Below the pieces are notes generated by a model. The model had not been told where the DNA came from. It was given only the letters and a program-made list of their open reading frames with translations, and searched no databases. A program made the translations under genes and the position numbers. A stretch of DNA of 63,999 nucleotides, the filler included, from Kipferlia bialata (Eukaryota): assembly GCA_003568945.1 (NCBI GenBank). It is 5 parts of 5 records of this genome, joined end to end, with 100 filler letters (N's around TTAATTAATTAA, not from the genome) between each part and the next. Parts side by side here need not be neighbours in the genome. Positions count along the whole stretch, not along the records: positions 1 to 16,024 come from BDIP01000641.1; positions 16,125 to 32,140 come from BDIP01000643.1; 3 more parts are not named here. One strand, 5' to 3'. This document shows positions 9,456 through 61,173 of the stretch, piece after piece. Each line of letters opens with the position of its first letter. Position 1 is the first letter of the stretch.

Positions 9456-12400
9456 TCAACAAGTGTACTGTTGTATGTAGATCATTGACACTATTCACTC
9501 TGCCTTCCACTTCAACGCAGCGTACTCAGGGGTATCAATGTATATAGAGAATCAATGTGTAAGGATATAGGGATATGATTACATGCTAGTATTCCTCCCA
9601 TACTCTCATATCCCTGTGTCATTTCTCCTCTGTGTATGTAATGCTGGTCTTCTTCGGCCGAGCTGTTCATTCAGCCCAGCTATCTCCCTCTGGGTGTCTC
9701 TCTCACCCCTTCTCTCACACAATAGTGCCTTGACATGCACGTGGTCACCTTCTACGATGGGTCATACTCTCTCTCTCTCTCTCTATATATATACGTGTAT
9801 ACATGAGACTGTATATACCCTTACCCTCAGTGTCTAGACATGCATGTTGTGACCTTCTACGATGGATCATACACAGAGGCATTCATGATTAACAGCACTA
9901 GTCCAATAGGTATGGAGAGAGCAATATGAGTGTAAGGATAGAGAGAGAGAGAGAGAGAGAGAGATGGGTCATACCCTGAGGCATTCATGATTAACAGCAC
10001 CAGTCCTATAGGTACAGAGATAGTAATATAACTGTAAATATAGAGGAAAAGGGGGTATATATATGTATATCGGGAGGGAGAGAGGGAGAGATGGGTCATA
10101 CACGTAGGTGCTCATGACGCACAGTACCAGTCCAATAGTTCCAGAGAGATGTTGTGTATTTCTATGTTTCCTCCCACTCATTCACTCTCTGTTCCTCTCT
10201 CTCTTACCCTTAGAATGGTAGCCTTCTACCATATCCTCCCCCGTGGATAGAGACATCAGCTCTCTCTCTCTCTCTCTCTACACCCATACACATATATGTA
10301 TTAGTATTCATGTATACCCATCTTATCATCAGAGTGGTATACCCCCACCATATCCTCCCCAGTTGATAGGGACATCAGCACTCTGACAGTGGTGCCCAAC
10401 AGTGCAGAGTTCATACTGGCCTATTGCAGTGACTTTTCCACAAGGTTTGTATAAGTATAGATTCACCCAATCCCTCCTGACATGAAGATACGATACAATA
10501 TACATTAATATATATATAGTGTATATCTGTAGTGTATATATGTGATACGCAGTTCAGAGTTCACACTCGCATACTGCAGTGACTTCTCTTCAAGGTCATA
10601 CGCACGCACCCACACTCACGGTGTAGCAATGTTCATTCTCACTATCTCTCTCTCTACCCATATATTTATGTGCCTCTGACGCTAACAACCACTGTTCTGA
10701 CCAGTGGCTGCTCTCTATCTCTCTCTCTTTCTCTCTCTATGTAATTACTGTAATATACTTACTCCAGCAACCACTGTGCCGCCACTGTGCTCACCACTGG
10801 CTACACACACGATGTATACCACAGTGCCCAGACATTCTTTGGGGATGAGGTACCTACTCTCTCTCTCTCTCTCTATATATATATACACACACACACATAT
10901 ATATATATGTATGCATATACAATTTGTATGTACATAAATGTGTGTGTGTATACACTGGCTACTTCCTTGATGAATACTACAGTGCTTTTACATTCTATGG
11001 TGAGATGAGGGGTGTATATTTATTCGTGTGTATATAGCTAGATAATGAGTGTGTATTTGATTCCCAACCGCAGAACGTCCCCGTGTACTCCCTGTCCTCC
11101 TGCTCTCTCTCTCTCTCTCTCTAAATGTATGAATATATTATGGTGTACATTAGTCTAACCCTTTAGAACGTCCCAGTCTACTCCCTGTCATCATGCTCTG
11201 ACACGTACTCAGACACCAATCCATTGGCATACACGGGTATACAGACATAGATATATACAGATATATAGTTGCATATATAGTATATAGTATATATATGTAT
11301 GTGAGTATCTAAATACTGACCCACTGGCATACCCAATCATCTATGGTAATGAAATGGATAGTAGCTAGTATACGATAGTATGTATACTGTATGAATGTAT
11401 ATCAGGACCCACTTGCATACGCAGAGTGCACCCTCAATCGCATTACACTCGTTCTGTTTCCACATGATATTTTCACCAATTCTCTTTTCAGTCTTTTTAC
11501 TATGACACTCCCGTTATTCAAATTACAATCAGCCCTTATTCTAATAACCCAGTTGAGGGGTCTGAGCCTGGCCTGTACTCCATCCACGTGCTGACGTCTA
11601 GGGCCATGGTATGTATATATGATATATATGTATATATGTGTGTATGATATACATGTGATATATAAGTATGTATGTAATATGTTCTATATGAATACTAGGG
11701 CTGTGGTATGGCTGTTACACCTCTACTCAAACCCCGGACTACAATGTCTTCAGATGGTCTTCAGGTGTGCCACTACTCCCTGTCTCTCTATGTATCCATA
11801 TGTACACCGGTCTCACCCATAAGGGCCCTGATACCATTGAGTTTGGCTCCCGCTCTGTCATTGATGATTCCAGTTCTCTCTCTCTCTCTCATTGAGAGTC
11901 TCAATGTAATAATCAACTACAATACCACTAACCATAGGGTCCTGATACCATTGAGTTTGGGTCCCGCTCTGTCATCGATGATGCCACCCATGATGCAGAC
12001 TCAGTGCAGATATCAGTCACTAGTGATGGGTATGTATAGTATAGTATATAGTGTATATTATATGTATGTATATATATATTTTTATATGTGGGTCATCGAT
12101 GATGCCACCCATGACCCCCAGACAGTGCAGATAACAGTTAGTGCAGATGGGTATGTAATACATGAATATATCTATATTACAGTAAATACAATAGTAGTGC
12201 TATGTCTCTATAGTGATGCTACCCATGACCCCCAGACGGCGCAGATAGGGGTGATGGATGACCGGTATTTGTATAGTATACTCTATATATATTTACATTC
12301 AATATTTGAGAAGCAAACACCCATCAAGCTAACCCAGCACTCTCTGTGTGTCCTTCATTGACACAGATGGCTATGCTGGGGTGGTCATTGGGGAAGGTAT

Positions 12401-15555: not shown

Positions 15556-15557
<2 letters not shown>
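7689..15557 (+). CDS. About 22-exon gene for a secreted/surface protein with an N-terminal signal peptide; resembles marine-phage virion/structural proteins
   Basis: Exon 1 (7689-7802) MHTLSVCLALACVLACCVCA-FNDAGPCIHALADGELKK; exon 2 (8291-8338) GDAVIVNPDGTVSSVQ. Final exons 14373-14488, 14811-14849, 15145-15215 and 15431-15557 give ...HESTNLTKSNLVGMADGNYSHGQLVTVNTIGATNDGQWALTAGERYCVTESGDLSVISDD...TGRAITSNQMLITL*. Gene structure is well supported; the phage resemblance is recalled, not searched. Confidence 0.7.
8346..8660. repeat. Degenerate (TA)n/(TG)n intronic microsatellite, representative of intron filler throughout the window
   Basis: About 300 nt of tatatatg-type repeats; similar (TA)n, (TC)n, (GA)n and poly-C tracts occur in nearly every intron. 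Confidence 0.9.
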
Positions 15558-15594
<37 letters not shown>

Positions 15595-16024
15595 CAGGGC
15601 CATCACATCTAACCAGATGCTGGTGACACTCTAGATATCTATATATTCATATTGAGAGAGAGAAAGAGAGGGAGATGGGGAATAGTGACATGTAATTCAG
15701 GGTTAGTACCGTGCCATAACTCCACCTCTTCGTTGTGGAAGTGATGAGTACTTAACTGTAGACAGGGTCTTGCAACAGACACTTGACTAAAGGCAGACAC
15801 AGAAGTATTGAGGCAATGAGGGGGATGTTACCATATGCTTCTCACTGTGACTCACTCCCTTGAATATATATAGTATACGTGGGAGAGTCTTCCCACTGCA
15901 GGTGGGTCACAGAGTGTGACCGTCTTAAGTCACATTCGTCAAGATGTACTATGTACGCTCATCCAGCTAGTGGTACATTGAAATGAATCATATGTGTATC
16001 ACGGACCGAGTTGGTGAAACCTAT

Positions 16025-16124
16025 NNNNNNNNNNNNNNNNNNNNNNNNNNNNNNNNNNNNNNNNNNNNTTAATTAATTAANNNNNNNNNNNNNNNNNNNN
16101 NNNNNNNNNNNNNNNNNNNNNNNN
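16025..16124. other. Artificial scaffold linker (N44-TTAATTAATTAA-N44)
   Basis: TTAATTAATTAA (stop in all six frames) at 16069-16080, flanked by 44 N each side; identical linkers recur three more times. Confidence 0.97.
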
Positions 16125-16180
<56 letters not shown>

Positions 16181-16289
16181 ACTTACCCTATAAGTCATTG
16201 ATGGCTCTGCCCCCCCCTGATGTGGAGAAATATATGCATATATAAATGCGTATATATTTCATCTTTTGGCTCTCTTCTTATATCCCTAG

Positions 16290-16914
16290 GTCATTGATGG
16301 CACTGCCCCCCCTGATGCAGAGACATCTAGCATACTGGACAGTCACTTGTATTGGGTAATAGAGGGACCAGGTACATATGTATACATATATATATATATA
16401 CTATTCGATATATATATATATAGTGAATGGATATCTATGTGTGTGAGCATACATGTATAGTGGACAGTCACTTGTATTGGGCCTCAGCTTGACCGGGTAC
16501 ATATATATGTATATATACTATTCGATATAGATATATATATATACTATACTACTAACTGTATACACTATATATACATATATGTATTACCTGAGATGAGTCA
16601 GAGGAGGAACATGTACTGTTACTAACTTCGCCATCATAAATATCATAAATATCATAAGTATACTAACTAATAAATGTATACTAACTTATAAATTTACGTA
16701 TACTAACTAGATACCTCTCTCGCTGTGTAACTCTTCCGCTGTCTACTAACCCCACCACGTAACCTCCTGGTCCTTCCCGCATCTCTCTCTCTCTCCCCTC
16801 TCCTCCTTACACCCAGTGCGTATCCTCCTCATCCAGGCCAATGGGGTCACAGGATCAGGTATATATATACGTATATACATATATATTCACATACACATTA
16901 ACTATATATACCTA

Positions 16915-16951
<37 letters not shown>

Positions 16952-17694
16952 ACCCAATGGTCCTGGCCAACGGGGTCACAGGGTCAGGTACTGAATAATT
17001 AGCATATATATATGTACTATATACTGTATATGTATACTATATACCACCATATATATGTGTTTCCTCCTTGTCCTGGTCAATGGATACACAGGGTCAGGTA
17101 TGTGTATGCATACATCTATATATACGTTATATATCAGTATTTATGTATATTATATAAATATATATATATATATACTTATAGTATCATACACATATACATA
17201 TAGGAATTAAATATTGTGTGTATATAACAAATGGAGTCACGGAGTCAGGTAAAGATATATATATATATATACTCTGTAAGTTCTCTATATTTGTCCATGT
17301 GTATGATTACACTTGATGTGTACTATGATTTCCAGTGTCTCTCTGTCTTAGGATTCTGTGGTGGGTAGAGTATAAACTCTGTATATACTGTAAATGTATA
17401 GTATGTATATTATACAGTCTAGGCAAGAACAATCCACTTTGCCTATCTTACAAACTCTCTCTGTGTATGCACTTACTTATACTTTACCCTTCCTCGATAT
17501 ATACATATATATATATATATATGTATGTATGTATATACTCTCACTCTCTAGGCAAGACATTCACTGTACAGCACGTGGTGCGTAGAGTGCTCAGGCACCT
17601 GGAAGAGGAGAGAGACCGCCTTATCAGCTCAGGTAGGACCATTTACTATCTCTCTCTCCCTCTCTCTCTATATATATATACATATACATATATC

Positions 17695-17725
<31 letters not shown>

Positions 17726-17994
17726 TATCAGAGTACTCAGCCACCTGGAAGAGGAGAGAGGCAGACTCATCAGCTCAGGTTTGAGAGTATTGTATTGTGT
17801 GTTCTAGTTATGTATTGTGTACGTGGCTCCTAGTTCTCTTCCAATGCTAGGTGTCACTACCTCTGTATACACATTCGGCCTCTCTGTCTCTCTCTCTCTC
17901 TGTCTCTCTCTCTCTGTCTCTCGGCCTCTTTCTCTCCCTTCCATTTGTCTTTGGATATGTGAGAGATGTGTCTATAAGCCTTTGTGCACATATA

Positions 17995-18032
<38 letters not shown>

Positions 18033-19304
18033 CTTCACATAACTATCGACTCATCCAGGTCAACACGCCTCTGTGTACACATACTGCCTTGAGTTCAGGG
18101 CCACAGTCAAGAGGAAGACCCACGGGGAGTACGGTTATGTATATAGATAGATTTGTATATATGTAGAGGGGGAGAGAGAGAGAGAGAGGAAGAGCCACAG
18201 TCAAGAGGAAGACCCACGGGGAGTACGTACCCATATCAGTATGTATTCATTAGATATAGAATAGTGTATGAACATCCGTATTTACATAGACACAATCTAA
18301 TATAACTACAGGTACACCTGTGGTAAGATGCCGTGCTACAGACTGTCGATATATGTATATTCATTAAATACCATATAGATGATATTGTATATATGAATAT
18401 GTATCATGTCTAATACAGGTACACCTGTGGCAGATGCAGTGCTACGGACTGGATGCAGACACACACTAATGCATATATATATATACATACATATAAATAT
18501 GTATATGTATATATTCATCTATTCCCTAACCTGTAGGTACACCTGTGGCAAGATGCAGTGCTACAGACTGGATGCAGACACCAAGGCAGAGAGGGACAAG
18601 GTCTTGGAGCCAATGCTGTACGTGACAATGATATTAATGCATATACATAGGGGGAGAGAGAGAGAGAGAGATGCAGACACCAAGGCAGAGAGGGACAAGG
18701 TCTTGGAGCCAAGACTGTACGTGTATATTGCTAAATGTAGAGAGAGATTAGTTTCCTGCTCCATTACTCTGTCACCTTCTGATGTATATAATGTATATAC
18801 GTATATACTATAGTATTGTTACTGTTCATGCCTATATATGTCTTACTGACCATAGCACACGCCCCCCTTCCTTTGGCAGCACTGTTAGTGTCACGCCAAG
18901 GGAGATGGGGACAGCACAAGGGGCATATGAGGCATATATGGTATGTATGTATATATGTGAGACTAAGGAAGAGAGAGAGAGAGACAATGGGAGATGGGGA
19001 CAGCACAGGAGGCATATGAGGCCTTTATGGTGAGTTCTTCAATATATATATACATACCTGCTTGGGTTTGTATGAATTGAGGGGGGAGAGTCTGCATTTA
19101 TGGTATGGACCCATGTATACCTATGTGGATATATAGTATCACTCTCTTTCTGACTGATACATATAGGCCCTCACCCGTATCACCAAATGCATCTATATAC
19201 ATGGATTCATATACATATATACACTTATCTTGGTATATATGTATACATTTATATATATACTTATATATAGGCCCTCCCCCGTATCACCCTGGCCACCAAG
19301 TATA

Positions 19305-19346
<42 letters not shown>

Positions 19347-22300
19347 ATAGGCACTTCCTAGGATCACCCTTGCCACCAAGGGCAACCCGACCAGTTCTAG
19401 GAGCCATGCAGCCATATGTGCCACACTCACTGTGGTATGCATGCATAGTATATAGTATACTATATACTGTATGTATGTATATAGTATATATAGTATATAT
19501 AGTATATATAGTATATATAGTATATATTTACTATACTATGCAGCCATATGTGCCACACTCACTGTGGTATGCATGCATAGTATATGTACTCCTCTACGTT
19601 ACCATTAGTCACGCTTAGTCACCATGGCATACATGCATAGTATATAGTTCACTGTATATGCATTGAATATTCACCATGGTATACATGCAAAGTGTATGTA
19701 TAGTATACTAAATGTATTCTATATACTATGTTACCACCGATGTCACGCTCACAATGTCATACATATATGAGTGAGTATATAATTATTACCACGTAAATAT
19801 CTCACCCCAGGGAGAGGGGAAGGCACGGAGAGAGGTGGCGAGTGTCATGCTGGTGGACATGGCAGGTTAGACAAAAGAGGGTATATATGTATATAGAAAT
19901 ACTTANNNNNNNNNNNNNNNNNNNNNNNNNNNNNNNNNNNNNNNNNNNNNNNNNNNNNNNNNNNNNNNNNNNNNNNNNNNNNNNNNNNNNNNNNNNNNNN
20001 NNNNNNNNNNNACTGTATCTATGAGAGAGGTGGCGAGTGTCATGATGGTGGACATGGCAGGTGAGAGAGAGGCATTAATACTATATATATGTATAGTATA
20101 TAGTATGTTAATCTATATTGTCTATATTAATACATCTATGAGGGAGGTGGCGAGTGTCATGATGGTGGACATGGCAGGTGAGAGAGAGGGATTAATACTA
20201 TATTTATATATAGTATATAGTATGTTATACTATATTGTATATATTAATATATCTAGGAGGGAGGTGGCGAGTGTCATGATGGTGGACATGGCAGGTATGT
20301 GATATATGTATGTATATATACATACACTCTATACTATTCTCTACTCTACTATATGGATATGTATATGGATATGGATATGTATATGATATCGGTGGCCAGT
20401 GTCATGATGGTGGACATGGCAGGTATACATAGATATACATATATATATACATAGGTTGATGAGTCTAGTGTATATGTGTGTCTTGTATATATAGTGTATA
20501 TGTATATGACAGAAGTTGTCAATGTGATGATTGTGGAAATGGCAGGTGATGCTACTAGGAGTACATATGCACTATATAGTATACACACATATGGTGCATA
20601 CATATGGGTACATACACAGCCGCACATGGTTGATATGGCAGGTGAGGCTACAAGGAGTATATAAACTCACTATATAGTATGAATGTATGTACCTATGTAC
20701 CTATATATATATGTGTGTGTGTGTGTGTTGTGCTTGTGGACATGGAAGGTGAGACTAGAAAGAGTGTATGGGGTAGATATTCCTATGTTAAGATTCATAA
20801 TATTACATACTGCTTGCTACTCATATGCACTTTTTTCGTATATGAATTGTTTCTGACTCGAGGCCGTGAGTCCTTCAACGCTGACTCATATACTATTGAT
20901 TTGTGTGTGCGGGTATGCTTACCTCAGGCAGTGAGCCCTTTGACTATGACGCCGACCCTAAGCTGAGAGCACAGGTGGGTACTTATGTACATATATACAC
21001 ACATACACACACAAATATTTGGTATGTATACTATACATTTGATACTGATATATTTGATACTGATACTGATATATATACTTATGCAAAGGACAAGGCCATC
21101 AACTCTGACCAGACTGCATATATGCGTATATGATAATACCTAAGATTATATATATATGTTTATACACTAACGTGTGGGCCACTAATTAGATCATATATAT
21201 ATATATATGTATATATACTTACGTATAGGGCAAGGCCATCAACTCCGACCAGACTGCATTCAAGAGTCACATGACAGACCTGCTCAGAGAGAACAAGGCA
21301 GGGAGGAATGCACTCAGGTATCACTAGTATGTATATATATTTAGAGAAAGAGAGAGAGAGAGAGAGACACGAGGCACTGCAGGATGAGAGAGAGAGAGAG
21401 AGACAACAAGGCAGGGAGGAATGCACTCAGGTATCACTAGTATATATAATATGTATTATAGTGTACACTCACTTATGGATAGTATATAAATATATATAGA
21501 GAGAGAGAGAGTGTGTCGCATGACAGACCTGCTCAGAGAGAACAAGGCAGGGAGGACTGCACTCAGGTATCACTAGTATATACAATATATATTATAGTGT
21601 ACACTCACTTATGTATAGTATATATACAGAGAGAGAGAGAGAGAGAGAGAGTCACATGACAGACCTGCTCAGAGACAACAAGGCAGGGAGGACTGCAATG
21701 AGGTGTATAGTATATTATATATATATACATGTACTATATGTATTAGATATGTATATACTCAGACATATATATATATAGAGAGAGAGAGAGTTGCATGACA
21801 GACCGGCTCAGAGACAACAAGGCAGGGAGGACTGCAATGAGGTATATAATACATGTATACAGTGTATTAGTATGTATGTATATATAGTACTGTCACTATC
21901 TATAATGTATGTATATATATATAGATATATATTGGACTGCGTATTAATATGGAACATATTAACACCAGGGGCTCTGAGCTCCTGAAGGTCATCTCCCCCT
22001 ACTTTAGTGGTGACCCTAGACACCCTGAGGTACATATACCAATATAATATATATATATATATATATAAGTGTGTATATATATATACACTCAGTCCTAATC
22101 CTCAGGCCAGGGTGGTGCTGATAGGGTGTGTGTATGGACACCCGGACCAGTACAACAACGCTAAGGTACTGATATATGTGTATACACATATATCAGGTAT
22201 ATACTCTGTATACTCTATATACTATTACGCGTCGGGTGTGTGTATGGATATCAGGACCAGTGCAACAACGCGAAAGTTACTTTTGGATGTAGGGTTTATG

Positions 22301-32280: not shown

Positions 32281-32284
<4 letters not shown>

Positions 32285-32396
32285 TACACCCTTATGTCAG
32301 CTGCTGCCCATGACATTGAGCACTGTATCTCTCTCTCCCCCCCTCTACACCCTTATATCAGCTGCTCCCCATGACATTGAGCACTCTCTCTCTCTC

Positions 32397-32438
<42 letters not shown>

Positions 32439-32690
32439 TGCACCCTTATATCAGCTGCTGCCCATGACATTGAGCACTGTATCTCTCTCTCCCCCCCTCT
32501 ACCCCCTTATATCAGCTCCTGCCCATGACATTGAACCCTCTCTCCCTCTCCCTCTCTCCGTCTCTCTCTCTCTCTCTCTCTCTCCCTCTGCACCCTTATT
32601 TCAGCTGCTGCCCATGACATTGAGCACACACTCTCTCTCTCCCTCCCTCTACACCCTTATTTCAGCTGCTGCCCATGACATTGAGCACTG
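32281..32690 (+). repeat. Stack of upstream acceptor echoes before the PDE HD exon
   Basis: cacccttat(a/t/g)tcag|ctgctgcccatgacattga occurs six times; five stop after about 20-27 nt in (TC)n, and only the last (32666) continues as the exon. Confidence 0.9.
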
Positions 32691-32899
32691 CGGAGTGAGT
32701 CCAGACCTGCTCGTCAACATGAGGTGGTGCATGGATATATACACACATATATATATATTTATATATATATACAGGAATCAAGAGATAGTGTTCAATAGTT
32801 TCATACACACATGTACCAGTTTCCGCTTATTCTAACCGTTAACACACACGAACACACTCTCTCTACTGTTTTAACTCTTAAACACCCTCTGTATCATGA

Positions 32900-56876: not shown

Positions 56877-56964
56877 ACCTGTCGGCTGTGCTGTTCCGGC
56901 CAGGGTCAGCGACACCACAACCTCTGTAGAGTCACAGGAGACAGAGGCAGACTGGGGTGGGGGG

Positions 56965-57002
<38 letters not shown>

Positions 57003-58246
57003 CCCATACCTCATCCAGCCAGGTGGCACTATAAGGGCAGTCGGGGAATGCCATTACATTCCCATACTCATCTGTGGTGGATACAGTAAAGGAGAGAGAG
57101 GCGCCTGGTGGTGAGGGTAGGTTGAGAGGTGCAAAGTGGGTTTTTCTATACACATCCACTATCCCATTCACATATCCCTCCCTCTCTCCGTGTAATAACA
57201 CACATCCCCCCCACCTGCCGTGTACACTAGCTGTGTGGTTGGGCTGACTGTCACAGTGTCTGCCAAGGGGTCGGGGTCCCCAGCCACAACCGAGGCATCG
57301 GAGACAGACCACAGCTCGGTCATGGCAGCTGAGGGTGAGGGAGGTTAGGGTTGATAAGGAGTATAGAGAGAGGGGGGGGATGATGAGAGAAGAATATGGG
57401 GTGGATATATATCAATGGGTGACAGTAGCTGCAGGTACCCCGTAAACTTACCATTGGCTGGGACGTAGAATAGTCGCAAGGAACCAGATCCAGCCTGAAT
57501 GTGAGGATAGGTCTAATGTAAAGTGTAGTATATAGTCGATGTGAGTAAATGTATCATGAAGGGGAGACACGCCGGAGGGTACTCCCTGTCCTGACTCACT
57601 AACAATGCCACAGACAAAAAGAGAGATTATATGAGTGCCAGTATCATTGTGAATGGCATGTATATATATGATATATATACTACATATATTATATGCATTA
57701 ACATCCAAGTACCTGTGTCATTGTGAATGAGGGGGAGTAGTTCGTGGAACAGAAGCCACTCAGGGACTGGCCTGAGGGTGGGGGAGGGATAGGGGAAGAC
57801 AGTGACAACACTTCAACTCTAAACATAAACTGCTAATTACATACAGTGACTAAACCCTGGAGAGAGGAGACATTTGGGACAGTACCTCAGGGCAATATAC
57901 ATACATATTCAGCAAGAGTATACTACAGTCATCCACCACTCCACTCTACTAACCTATCCACTCCAGAACATAGGAGCATGCTGATATGGAACCTGCCCCA
58001 CCATAGGAGTCCTTGGGTAAGACAATGGACATACAGTGGCCAGGGAGACAGGGGATAGACCTTCCAAACAATGCAGCACCGGAGAATACACCTCTGTCAG
58101 AGGCTGACGCTGTACCTGGGTGTCTGAGAGAGTATCAGTATCAGTATCAGTATCAGTACCTGTGTGTCTGAGAGTGTGAATGTGACGGTGGTGCCTGCAG
58201 TGACCGAATCAGTCTCAGGCCATGTGTCCGAGAGAGTGTAGTCCTG

Positions 58247-58283
<37 letters not shown>

Positions 58284-58533
58284 GACATATGTCCCAGAGT
58301 TCACATGACCGTGGCTAGACATGGATAACATAGTAGTCCCTGGAAGACTAACCCAGGTACCTGGTCACATAGAATTGTATCAATGTGTATATATATAGAC
58401 TGGTATATATGCACTGGCACCATACCATGGCAGGGTCAAAGTCACCCCCCCTCACAATGCACAGCAGCGACAGCAGACACAGCCATTGACAGAGGACACC
58501 CCAGGGCACCCGTCCTGACTCATGGCAGGGCAT
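56877..58533 (-). CDS. Secreted/surface protein with Ig-like (filamin/invasin-type) repeats (3'-truncated)
   Basis: Hydrophobic N-terminus (WGVLCQWLCLLSLLCIVRG), then exons DSVTAGTTVTFTLSD, VVAGDPDPLADTVTV and GASLSFTVSTTDEYGNV (AG...FTV...D.YGN pattern). Confidence 0.55.
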
Positions 58534-59127
58534 GGGGGGTGTCCGTGTAGGGCTGGTGGTTATCCACAAACAACCACCAGTCAAGGCGGAAACAGGGGAA
58601 GGACAGACAGAGACCCAGAGGACTAGCTACACACGGTGTGGCAAGGGAGATAGGCAGTCTGAGTGGAAGGGTAATGGTAGAATGGGTAGAGAGTCACAGT
58701 GGTTTTTGTCACGTTCCCACACCCTTATGTTGGAGCCACACTCATAATACAGTCTAATGGACCATGACAGTGCGACAAGTCATCTATAAACATTTACACA
58801 ACACATATACAACCACTACCGAACAAATGAGTCCTATCATTTATAGGCTAATTGATTTTCTTTAAGTTTTAAGTTTGTAATACATCATTCACACACTGGG
58901 CTCCCTCTATCCTCTAATGAATAGAGATAGAGGGGCGGACACGGACACACTAACGGACACATACAGTACAATCGACACCAGGCACAAGGGCGAGAAGGAA
59001 ACACCTCTCAGACACTGCCCTACACTAATTAAGGGTGCAGGGTCAGGGCGACAAACACAGGCTTGGGTAGGGGACGGTAAGATAGCTACCACCCCAGGAG
59101 CATAAGACACACACTCGGAGAGCGGGG

Positions 59128-59594
59128 CTAGAAGTCGAACCCCTGCCCCCTCTTGTTGACCTTGATGGAGGAGTGGAGGCTGGTCCTGCGGCCAGAGGCG
59201 GAGGGCCTGAACTGGGAGGGCCTCCCTGCCACCGACCCCCTGTGCCCTGTCCCGCTATTGGCCCTGAGGGAGGCCGGGGACCCACCCACACTGGACAGGT
59301 AGGACTGGAAGGAGGAGGGGACGGTGGTGTCGGTGGCCAGGAGGCGGGCGCTCTCTCTCTCCCTCTCCTGGGCCATGAACATGTCACGCACCCTGTCCCT
59401 CTCTCTCTCTCTCTCCACCTCCCTCGCGTCCCTGCCCGGCTTCACGGCTGATGCCTTGGGAAGGGGGGTCGGGGAGGAGCTGTGCCTGTGCCTCTGGGAG
59501 TGGGAGGAGAGGCCGAGGGTGTGCTTCTTGGTCAGCTGGGCAGACAGCATAGAGGGGGACCGGAGGGCATCGCCTGGGGTGGGACAGGGGGGGG

Positions 59595-59634
<40 letters not shown>

Positions 59635-61173
59635 ATTACCACACCCACACCCACAGTATGCAACCCACCTCCTGTCTGTGTGAGGTGTGTGGATGCCACG
59701 GCCAGGGCCTGGGGTGTCACGGGTGCCTTGGGCTGGTGGGTGTGGGAGGAGGTGTCGGAGTCAGAGGTGTCCCTCTCACCCCCCAGCTCCCTCTCAACCA
59801 CATCCCCAACAGATACACTCGAGTGCATAGGGTGCAGGGAGGGCATGGGGTTCTCTCTGGACTTGGAGGTGCGGAAGGTGGTGTTGATGCCCCTCCCTCC
59901 CATGGACAGAGACCCAGAGGTAGACATGGAGGAGACGCGGGGGGCGGGGCGGGAGGCAGCGCCCATGGAGGACATCTGGTGGGCACTGACAAGCCTCTCT
60001 CTGCTGCGCTCACGCACTGGGGGTCAGGGCGTGGGAGAGAGAGATGTATATGCAGCTGATAGTCCTCGTACATACAAATCAATAGTATATAGGCATTGAT
60101 ACCTGGTCCGAAGCCAGGGGGAGGTGGGGTGGTCTGGGAGTCACGGGTGCGACCCCACACGGCTGGGGTGGGGCTCTCCCTCCCCCTCTCCATCTCCATC
60201 TCCATCTCCAGCTCTCTCTCCACGTCCATGTCATCCAGCTGGTGCTTGTGCCTGGTGTTCCTGGCCAGGTTGGCGGCAATACCTGGGGTGAGGGAGGGAG
60301 AGAGGTCGGGGGTGGTATCGAGGGAATGAAGTCAGATATAGATATGCCCTAGCAGTTAGGGAACACACGAGAAGAATACACACACATCCATACCTGCGGC
60401 AGAGAGTGACGTGGATGTCACGCTCCTGGGGCCAGAGAGGGGCTGGTTGTAGCCTAGGGGGGACGGGGAAGGGGTGAAGATGTTGCCTGGGGGTGAGGGT
60501 CAATCGACACAATACTATGAGCCACACACATGGTGCTGATACACATGATCACAACACATACCCCTACGCTGCAGTATAGAGCCTCTCACGCCCACTAGCC
60601 CCACCTGGTACACTTGATGGCTAAATATAATCAAACACACACATACACTACATATCACACAAACAACTGTGTACCTGTCCTCCAGCCAGCAGGGAATCCT
60701 GCGCTGCCCAAGGACTGTGACTGGGGCGACGGGGCCCTCAGGGAGTGCACGCTCATGCTGCCGGACCCGTCCCTGTCGAGGTCTGCGGTCTCAAAAGTGG
60801 CAGGGGAGAAGAGAGACGGCTCCTCGGGGTTGTCAGTCTGGGAGGAGGGGGGGGACTGGGACCTCTGACTGGCCTCAGCTGCGATCTTAGCGGCTATCAG
60901 CTCCCGCTCCTTGGCCCTCAGGTTCACAACCTGGCGGCGCATGACCTTCTGGAGCTCCTTCAGACCCTGAACCTTAGAGCTGACACCCCGGAGGCGAAGA
61001 ATCGCCTGCCGACGCTCGTTCTCAAGGTTCCTGATCCATCTGGAGGGTAAGATATGAGTCAGCAGAGAGAAATAGATTGGCTAAAGGCACACGTACACTT
61101 GTGTGGCCTCGGGAAGCTTCGCGATGGCTACAGAGCAATCATCCTGGCTGGACGAAGTGGCAGAAGACGTCAT
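59128..61173 (-). CDS. Hypothetical protein with an N-terminal coiled coil and Ser/Pro/Arg-rich low-complexity regions
   Basis: MTSSATSS...ATQV|WIRNLENERRQAILRLRGVSSKVQGLKELQKVMRRQVVNLRAKERELIAAKIAAE..., then several GC-rich exons ending ...KRGQGFDF*. Confidence 0.6.

Follow-up and report, generated by a model that had tools for sequence, protein, structure and literature searches.

Introns in a 63,999-nucleotide stretch of the Kipferlia bialata genome (assembly GCA_003568945.1; the whole stretch, to which all counts refer, is called the window) are packed with partial copies of the ends of neighbouring exons, here called echoes. The scan of the window yielded 176 echoes against 0.6 expected by chance, flanking 79 of 137 exons, and the pattern of their differences from the live exons supports the conclusion that they diverged under protein-level selection before they died. 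On balance, we consider it probable that these fragments of exon ends, now apparently dead, were once coding on another, silently diverged haplotype and were displaced by one-sided homologous repair.

Geometry of the echoes

Two exons of the window were 100% identical to the K. bialata proteins KIPB_003380 (P0001) and KIPB_003376 (P0002), and exact spliced mapping resolved these genes into 28 and 21 exons, respectively. Thirteen further gene models were obtained by a dynamic-programming pass with hand curation and a check of frame continuity, giving the total of 137 exons. Each exon was compared with its flanking regions by a codon-blind detector of ungapped nucleotide matches (score threshold 14), the chance expectation being taken from matches to the flanks of other genes. 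All 176 hits enter the tallies. Among them are two echoes that an indel divides into two hits each, and a few alignments of doubtful quality (17970, 47394); keeping them biases the tallies against the reading we favour.

Upstream echoes copied the 5' part of the exon in 94 of 94 cases and downstream echoes the 3' part in 80 of 82, a polarity of 174 in 176; as head-to-tail direct copies adjoining their source, 174 of the 176 stand in tandem-duplication order. Anchored echoes spanned 14–66 nt (median 33), also beside long exons, and were stacked up to six or seven per exon side. Successive copies were offset by a median of 107 nt (quartiles 93–125), with spacers of median 74 nt. Introns grew by about 107 nt per echo, and most of the variation in their size followed echo number (Spearman 0.82), the median length being 115, 248, 342, 413 and 522 nt for introns with 0, 1, 2, 3 and 4 echoes.

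The splice sites of echoes scored as live ones do (acceptors, 6.48 versus 6.41), far above background AG or GT, so that echo flanks resemble real intron ends. When the flanks of 131 anchored echoes were compared with the live intron, 110 were not detectably related, 8 were weakly and 13 clearly related; this 30-nt test can miss old homology, and the flanks of echoes 5–7 at 20506–20783 look related by eye. No exon difference at all was present in 23 of the 110 echoes with unrelated flanks, 13 of which span 27–43 nt.

The motif (GA)4 occurred in none of the 44 echo-free introns, 11 of 20 GA runs ended where a donor-side echo starts, and 28 of 78 TC runs began where an acceptor-side echo ends. 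This placement is strand-symmetric, as expected of a DNA process: with GA runs before donor-side echoes and TC runs after acceptor-side ones, a strand copied outward from the exon would finish in (GA)n both times. Within one series, the junction was common to within 3 nt in 31 of 76 echo pairs, against 19% for random pairs. By eye, several (GA)n junctions carry 2–4 nt overlaps of GA or AGAG, a possible microhomology.

Two terminal exons were echoed together with their stop codons, so splicing is not required for echo formation. A single hit of the 176 covered a whole exon (17056–17097, 42 nt, anchored at GT only), and 2 of 148 echoes ran on into the sequence of the neighbouring exon. The rarity of copies crossing a spliced junction speaks against conversion mediated by cDNA. 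Among the spacers no shared insert family was found within the window: 24 of 105 had a 16-mer elsewhere, all of them AT-rich and of low complexity.

Some loci depart from the general pattern. Near-identical acceptor echoes form runs of five or six, split by (TC)n and with matching flanks, at 32281–32700 and 43590–44100; these may reflect either young unit amplification or a locally unreliable assembly. The introns of two genes at 56879–61147 (minus strand) are short and nearly free of echoes; echo density is thus strongly variable among genes. Echo 46571–46604 (minus strand), derived from exon 46682–46788, continues for 9 bases into the sequence of the next exon, as if copied from a version without that intron, which could be chance.

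Silent and protein-changing differences

Two pairs highlighted in the initial annotation were reproduced: echo 9726–9767 differs from exon 9831–9872 at 6 positions, all of them third positions and synonymous (CLDMHVVTFYDGSY), and echo 19271–19300 differs from 19351–19380 at 6 nucleotides in 5 codons, CGT/AGG included, and encodes the same peptide, ALPRITLATK. Their reading frames match NCBI proteins KIPB_003376 and KIPB_003380, respectively. The two loci sit on different scaffolds, as N-flanked TTAATTAATTAA linkers separate scaffolds at 16069, 32185, 48255 and 56653, where genes are cut at the joins. Echo 9726 has a GGG variant in common with echo 9963–10011. The readings TLMGIDL and TLLGIDL for the echoes starting at 4137 and 4306, against TLLGVDL in the live exon, were likewise recovered.

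The broader claim that differences are mainly synonymous stood as a real per-site excess, but the two main pairs are its best cases: the 35 echoes inside 9700–19400 carry 83 synonymous and 77 non-synonymous differences from the live exons, and the window as a whole 277 and 230. The distribution over codon positions, which had been proposed as a check, bore the claim out (117, 91 and 299 differences at positions 1, 2 and 3). Differences fell on 187 of 3634 non-degenerate sites and on 193 of 917 four-fold sites, giving a ratio of the difference rate at 0-fold sites over that at 4-fold sites (p0/p4) of 0.244, with a bootstrap 95% interval of 0.195–0.309 over 109 exon sides. This ratio was 0.19–0.36 over gene groups, 0.299 for the two NCBI-annotated genes alone and 0.241 with only the nearest echo of each of the 109 exon sides. 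Wrong-frame controls gave 1.96 and 1.59, matching of trinucleotide context 0.28 and edge-trimming 0.21–0.22; these controls and the restriction to one echo per side leave the signal standing. GC bias was ruled out as its cause, with 60 versus 68 changes in each direction at four-fold sites. Transversions at four-fold sites numbered 124 and transitions 69, a near-absence of transition bias. Echo rank showed no clean age trend in divergence.

Null models of dead copies

The initial annotation had assumed that a dead duplicate gains changes at all codon positions, with a dN/dS near 1. That null proved too lax: since mutations strike a dead copy at every site and the live exon keeps only silent ones, a ratio of about 0.5 is to be expected. 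When dead tandem copies next to an exon under constraint were simulated and passed through the same detector, they gave 0.45–0.69 over 13 settings, and the lowest of 40 single replicates in a favourable null setting was 0.395. The observed 0.24 lies below the simulated range, so plain duplication followed by drift fails, and copies identical at birth, as from a sister template, do not match the data. A simulation with 0.2–0.25 functional divergence before death and 0.02–0.04 after it gave 0.19–0.27.

Simple tandem duplication had also been regarded as sufficient if silent changes mapped to the live-exon branch alone. They do not, since comparison of echoes with one another gave a ratio of 0.26 (122/1982 versus 108/460). 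When only the private changes of the echo more similar to the live exon were counted, the ratio was 0.18 (15/1982 versus 19/460), compared with 0.94–0.99 in single-lineage serial models run at 1x or 4x live mutation rate. GT or AG was lost in 9 of 137 edge-reaching echoes, which corresponds to a post-death decay of 0.033 per base (0.015–0.061), far below half of the Jukes–Cantor four-fold distance of about 0.25.

Present state of the echoes

Echoes appear dead now, because they contain stops and frameshifts and are skipped by an RNA-like contig. Stop codons were found in 8 echoes, about half of them near an edge, and 4 echoes, counted as 6 hits, have indels that shift the frame. The picture of introns as an archive of past alleles thus has to be qualified: with an estimated 3% post-death decay, stops and frameshifts, the record is not pristine.

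Read evidence covers 771 bases (9690–10460); uncovered parts, including echo 9726 in place, are uninformative, and contigs drop rare variants and isoforms. In this region, contigs of DNA runs held live exons at depth 432–456 and echoes at depth 374–454. The echoes at 9963, 10090 and 10216 all lie on one DNA contig, and a 348-nt contig holds three echoes with 0 other letters. One contig of DNA run X1, with 6 differences from live exon 9831–9909, was placed on that exon; this run is possibly the window's own source and so is not an independent sample. An RNA-like contig of X2, a run only tentatively taken as RNA, none of those listed being recorded as such, joins two live exons from GT to AG with 0 other letters and covers no echo.

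A proposed repair model

In the model that we propose, short exons would be the main islands of homology between haplotypes. Where the DNA breaks no more than about 60 nt from the end of an exon, the broken end would invade a divergent allele and copy some 100 nt, running beyond the splice site, or beyond the stop codon, into the intron of the donor allele. Copying would often halt in a (GA)n or (TC)n run, tracts in which polymerases stall. Annealing of the extended end with the second one, which is short and mismatched, would fail and the two would be end-joined, whereupon the new end would turn live and the old end, with the old intron flank, would become the echo. Selection would retain only products with one whole exon; over repeated rounds echoes would pile up, and junctions may be used again when an echo and the live exon exchange out of register. 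A divergent-homolog template would explain the length cap, as longer homology would anneal normally, and the unit size, given by the length of the copied tract; it would also explain why the flank is foreign yet functional and why silent differences are in excess.

According to the available part of one supplement, K. bialata has Dmc1, PolQ (g1038.t1), Rad52, Spo11, Msh2 and Brca2 and lacks Rad51A and Ku70, HELQ having no row; the accompanying text, as far as available, describes metamonads as lacking Ku and fornicates as lacking Rad51A (PMC8516963). Dmc1 is mismatch-tolerant according to the accessible portions of two further studies (PMC8682777, PMC6719624). One-sided homologous repair, as first suggested in the initial annotation, fits the geometry and the listed repair genes, but its break-and-extend direction cannot be told, in one genome, from an offset crossover between haplotypes, which would leave the same footprint.

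Several observations weigh against this reading. No donor allele was found, as metagenome scans gave no relative or only proteins 30–40% identical, and a search for shorter relatives of KIPB_003376 was empty. No second haplotype was seen at 9690–10460, where a single haplotype runs through both exon borders. Echoes identical to the live exon yet with unrelated flanks need an extra, exon-limited conversion step. The silent signal is collective: taken one at a time, just 7 of the 143 echoes that show differences depart from the null at p<0.05. Stops, 8 seen, come close to the 9 expected were all non-synonymous changes neutral, so much of the amino-acid change would be decay or edge noise. In the private-change test, models with an 8-fold faster live exon gave 0.66–0.69, the lowest replicate reaching 0.18, and counting by unique exon site, with ties taken both ways, raised the ratio to 0.45 (20/774 versus 11/191, p 0.04); this per-site counting weakens the test, so that a much faster-mutating live exon is disfavoured at most. 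Finally, gene models beyond the two NCBI genes are our own, and some first or uncertain exons were omitted. The earlier claim that each echo was coding in a divergent allele thus stands for protein-level selection before death, 0.24 rejecting the stricter null, and lacks its donor.

A hint of a second copy came from a search of representative sequences, where GIQ86363.1 (P0003) was the one close partial copy of KIPB_003376 and the other hits among the best 150 of 261 were below 50% identity. This protein, from another K. bialata contig, has a C-terminal end 92% identical to the last 61 residues of KIPB_003376 and carries the V of echo 15587–15634 where the live exon has I, a match of one residue only. 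GIQ86363.1 is annotated as a Trs65 model, and its ending is a diverged version of the final KIPB_003376 exons; the gene model has probably been fused with a second copy of that gene's end.

Alternative origins

The alternative that survives best, though unlikely, is the same repair with the other homolog of a long-clonal diploid as template, the homologs diverging without sex. Diploidy is implied by the k-mer profile in the available part of the genome paper, which also gives 124,912 introns (PMC5874029). A clonal genealogical simulation, with about 0.64 echoes per exon side, produced a p4 of 0.19–0.23 and a ratio of 0.31–0.40, so that its best case touches the upper bound of 0.309; simulation of an outbred pool with alleles about 0.2 apart fits better, at 0.21–0.26, with parameters chosen to fit. 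Clonality further predicts a ratio that rises with rank (0.37–0.49 at rank 3 and above), whereas 0.18 was observed at rank 3 and 0.20 at rank 4 and above (15 and 12 echoes), and a silent heterozygosity today of about 11%, in contrast with the single haplotype at 9690–10460. In these simulations the data lean towards an allele pool over two clonal homologs, with outcrossing unproven and the allelic source of echoes likely but unproven. Cryptic sex, which the initial annotation had raised, is suggested by the echoes but not required, given how close the clonal model comes.

Distinctly unlikely is tandem duplication from the sister chromatid, in which the live exon drifts silently, perhaps faster than introns, and slippage scrambles the spacers. 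It would account for the 13 of 131 echoes with a clearly related flank, for the ladder-like series at 19811–20748, and for the nearer echo being closer to the live exon in 51 pairs and farther in 29, with 29 ties. Strict nesting, however, predicts about 73:12 rather than 51:29, and equal rates give the 0.45–0.69 of the dead-copy simulations; the scenario needs live exons mutating some 4–8 times faster than introns and leaves the 13 echoes of 27–43 nt that are identical to the live exon beside unrelated flanks.

Duplication of whole exons, both used (by mutually exclusive splicing or in a paralog) until they had diverged silently and one copy was then halved, would yield purifying selection without alleles, and the diverged copy of the last KIPB_003376 exons on another contig, with the same V as the echo, suits it. 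We regard it as improbable, given the one full-exon hit, the polarity, lengths capped at 66 nt, the narrow period of 93–125 nt and terminal ends echoed without an acceptor. Still in use today, through rare splicing or as gene-conversion cassettes, echoes would be under current selection, a view favoured by splice sites as strong as the live ones and by mildly conservative non-synonymous changes (BLOSUM62 of 1 or more in 42% versus 31%, p 0.014); the stops and frameshifts, the single splice site of each echo and the RNA-like contig that uses the live exon, in which rare isoforms would be invisible, make it highly improbable. That two divergent haplotypes were mis-joined through microsatellites in this short-read draft, whose echo period is near short-read length and where no contig at 9690–10460 bridges echo and live exon across the microsatellites, is scarcely credible when separate contigs hold echoes and live exons at the depths given above, three echoes share the 348-nt contig, and echoes are truncated, stop-bearing and stacked to six or seven per side.

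Relation to known systems

The dense genome architecture described here is real and apparently undescribed, and it was probably produced by a variant form of a repair outcome that is already known. The available part of the genome paper contains no mention of such exon copies (PMC5874029), and searches of full-text literature, which leaves out most subscription papers, returned no description of echoes for Kipferlia. The closest likeness is to helq-1 mutants of Caenorhabditis elegans, in which aborted synthesis-dependent strand annealing and polymerase-theta end joining create tandem duplications: when the extended end cannot anneal, it is joined as it stands and the stretch just copied becomes duplicated, and K. 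bialata is listed with PolQ. As far as the accessible text of that study goes, those events arise in repair mutants as identical copies of 100 bp to 10 kb (median about 1 kb), whereas Kipferlia, a wild type, has exon-edge units of about 107 nt, silently diverged copies and non-matching flanks (PMC8654963).

Echoes share with one-sided invasion in plants one homologous and one non-homologous junction. Such invasion was reportedly described by Puchta in 1998, and Gao and Lynch reportedly treated internal gene duplication in 2009. The plant work, in the part available, concerns one-sided invasion and synthesis-dependent strand annealing with transgene templates, not natural genome-wide intron growth (PMC9299229). 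Intron gain by tandem genomic duplication likewise places duplicated exon sequence and splice sites inside introns; in the accessible parts of those studies, however, a new intron arises when a piece of exon that carries AGGT is duplicated within one allele (PMC3443670, PMC2891723, PMC3265369), whereas in Kipferlia existing introns lengthen and exon count is unchanged. The AGGT-type signature of new introns was not seen, echoes sitting within existing introns. A predicted intron of 44 nt in one of our gene models (58116–58159, minus strand), whose 3' end copies the upstream exon end, whose start resembles the next exon and whose core is (GATACT)n, looks like the only classical case of such gain here.

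Mutually exclusive tandem exons are also adjacent copies that differ as coding sequence does, but they are described, in the portions available (PMC9013439, PMC8373072), as whole and spliced, whereas an echo is half an exon with a single splice site, and stops and frameshifts occur among the echoes. Introner elements resemble echoes as repeated intron-sized additions across many genes (PMC9860276, available in part); Kipferlia spacers, in contrast, form no repeat family within the window.

Echoes offer a concrete, countable mechanism for intron length, and through them a single draft genome can be used to probe genetic exchange and diversity in Kipferlia, a free-living fornicate related to Giardia. 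They suggest a long-term genome effect of repair without Rad51 and Ku. They also raise a question of splicing: the reduced Kipferlia spliceosome, with 87 of 174 proteins in the part of the report available (PMC6679479), appears to skip several full-strength decoy splice sites per intron. Annotation calls for caution, as our own gene-finding pass repeatedly took echoes for exons. Tentatively, and with more doubt than confidence, we suggest that Kipferlia may be an outcrossing, hyperdiverse protist whose recombination, mismatch-tolerant and carried out by Dmc1 only, regularly ends one-sidedly between alleles homologous mainly at exons of 50–100 nt, introns growing by about 107 nt for each displaced exon end of another allele that they store. 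If so, the introns of one cultured genome would together preserve, layer upon layer, a sample of the alleles that its population once carried, and with it a readable record of sex in a lineage for which literature searches found none reported.

Features of the window

Coordinates of genes, live exons and echoes discussed in the text
Feature	Position	Strand	Remarks
Donor-side echo	3507..3554	+	HKSRAPLTLPKRLL versus live HKSRPPLTLPKRLL; 9/11 differences synonymous
Live exon (TLLGVDL) of upstream gene	3947..4036	+	Our gene model
Three donor-side echoes of exon 3947–4036	4136..4485	+	Near-common start; third with indels
Donor-side echo	5932..5981	+	8/8 differences synonymous
Gene KIPB_003376	7689..15557	+	530 aa, without Pfam match; 21 exons, 27 echoes
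Acceptor-side echo of exon 9831–9909	9726..9767	+	AG and first 42 nt, then (TC)n run
Live exon 5 of KIPB_003376	9831..9909	+	Exact spliced match; RNA-like contig joins it, GT..AG, to exon at 10333
Donor-side echo of exon 9831–9909	9963..10011	+	After (GA)n run, GT kept; 4 synonymous, 1 non-synonymous
Second, more decayed donor-side echo of exon 9831–9909	10090..10138	+	Contains stop codon
Acceptor-side echo of exon 10333–10444	10216..10265	+	From the scan
Echo of KIPB_003376 terminal exon	15587..15634	+	Stop codon included; QMLVTL versus live QMLITL; no splice site
Gene KIPB_003380	16290..29648	+	Partial, 1587 aa, MORN repeats; 28 exons, 39 echoes
Acceptor-side echo of exon 19351–19434	19271..19300	+	From pair comparison
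Live exon 7 of KIPB_003380	19351..19434	+	Exact spliced match
Seven-echo donor-side ladder of exon 19811–19865	20023..20748	+	Six above threshold; divergence grows outward
66-nt echo of terminal exon end	50322..50387	+	Stop codon included; conservative amino-acid changes

The N-terminal part of KIPB_003380 (16290–23250) gave no Pfam kinesin hit and contains, by eye, the kinesin-like motifs GVTGSGKT, SSRSHA and LVDMAGSE. The gene at 45374–46788 (minus strand) carries an RNA_ligase domain (PF09414), and its metagenome relatives are 30–40% identical.

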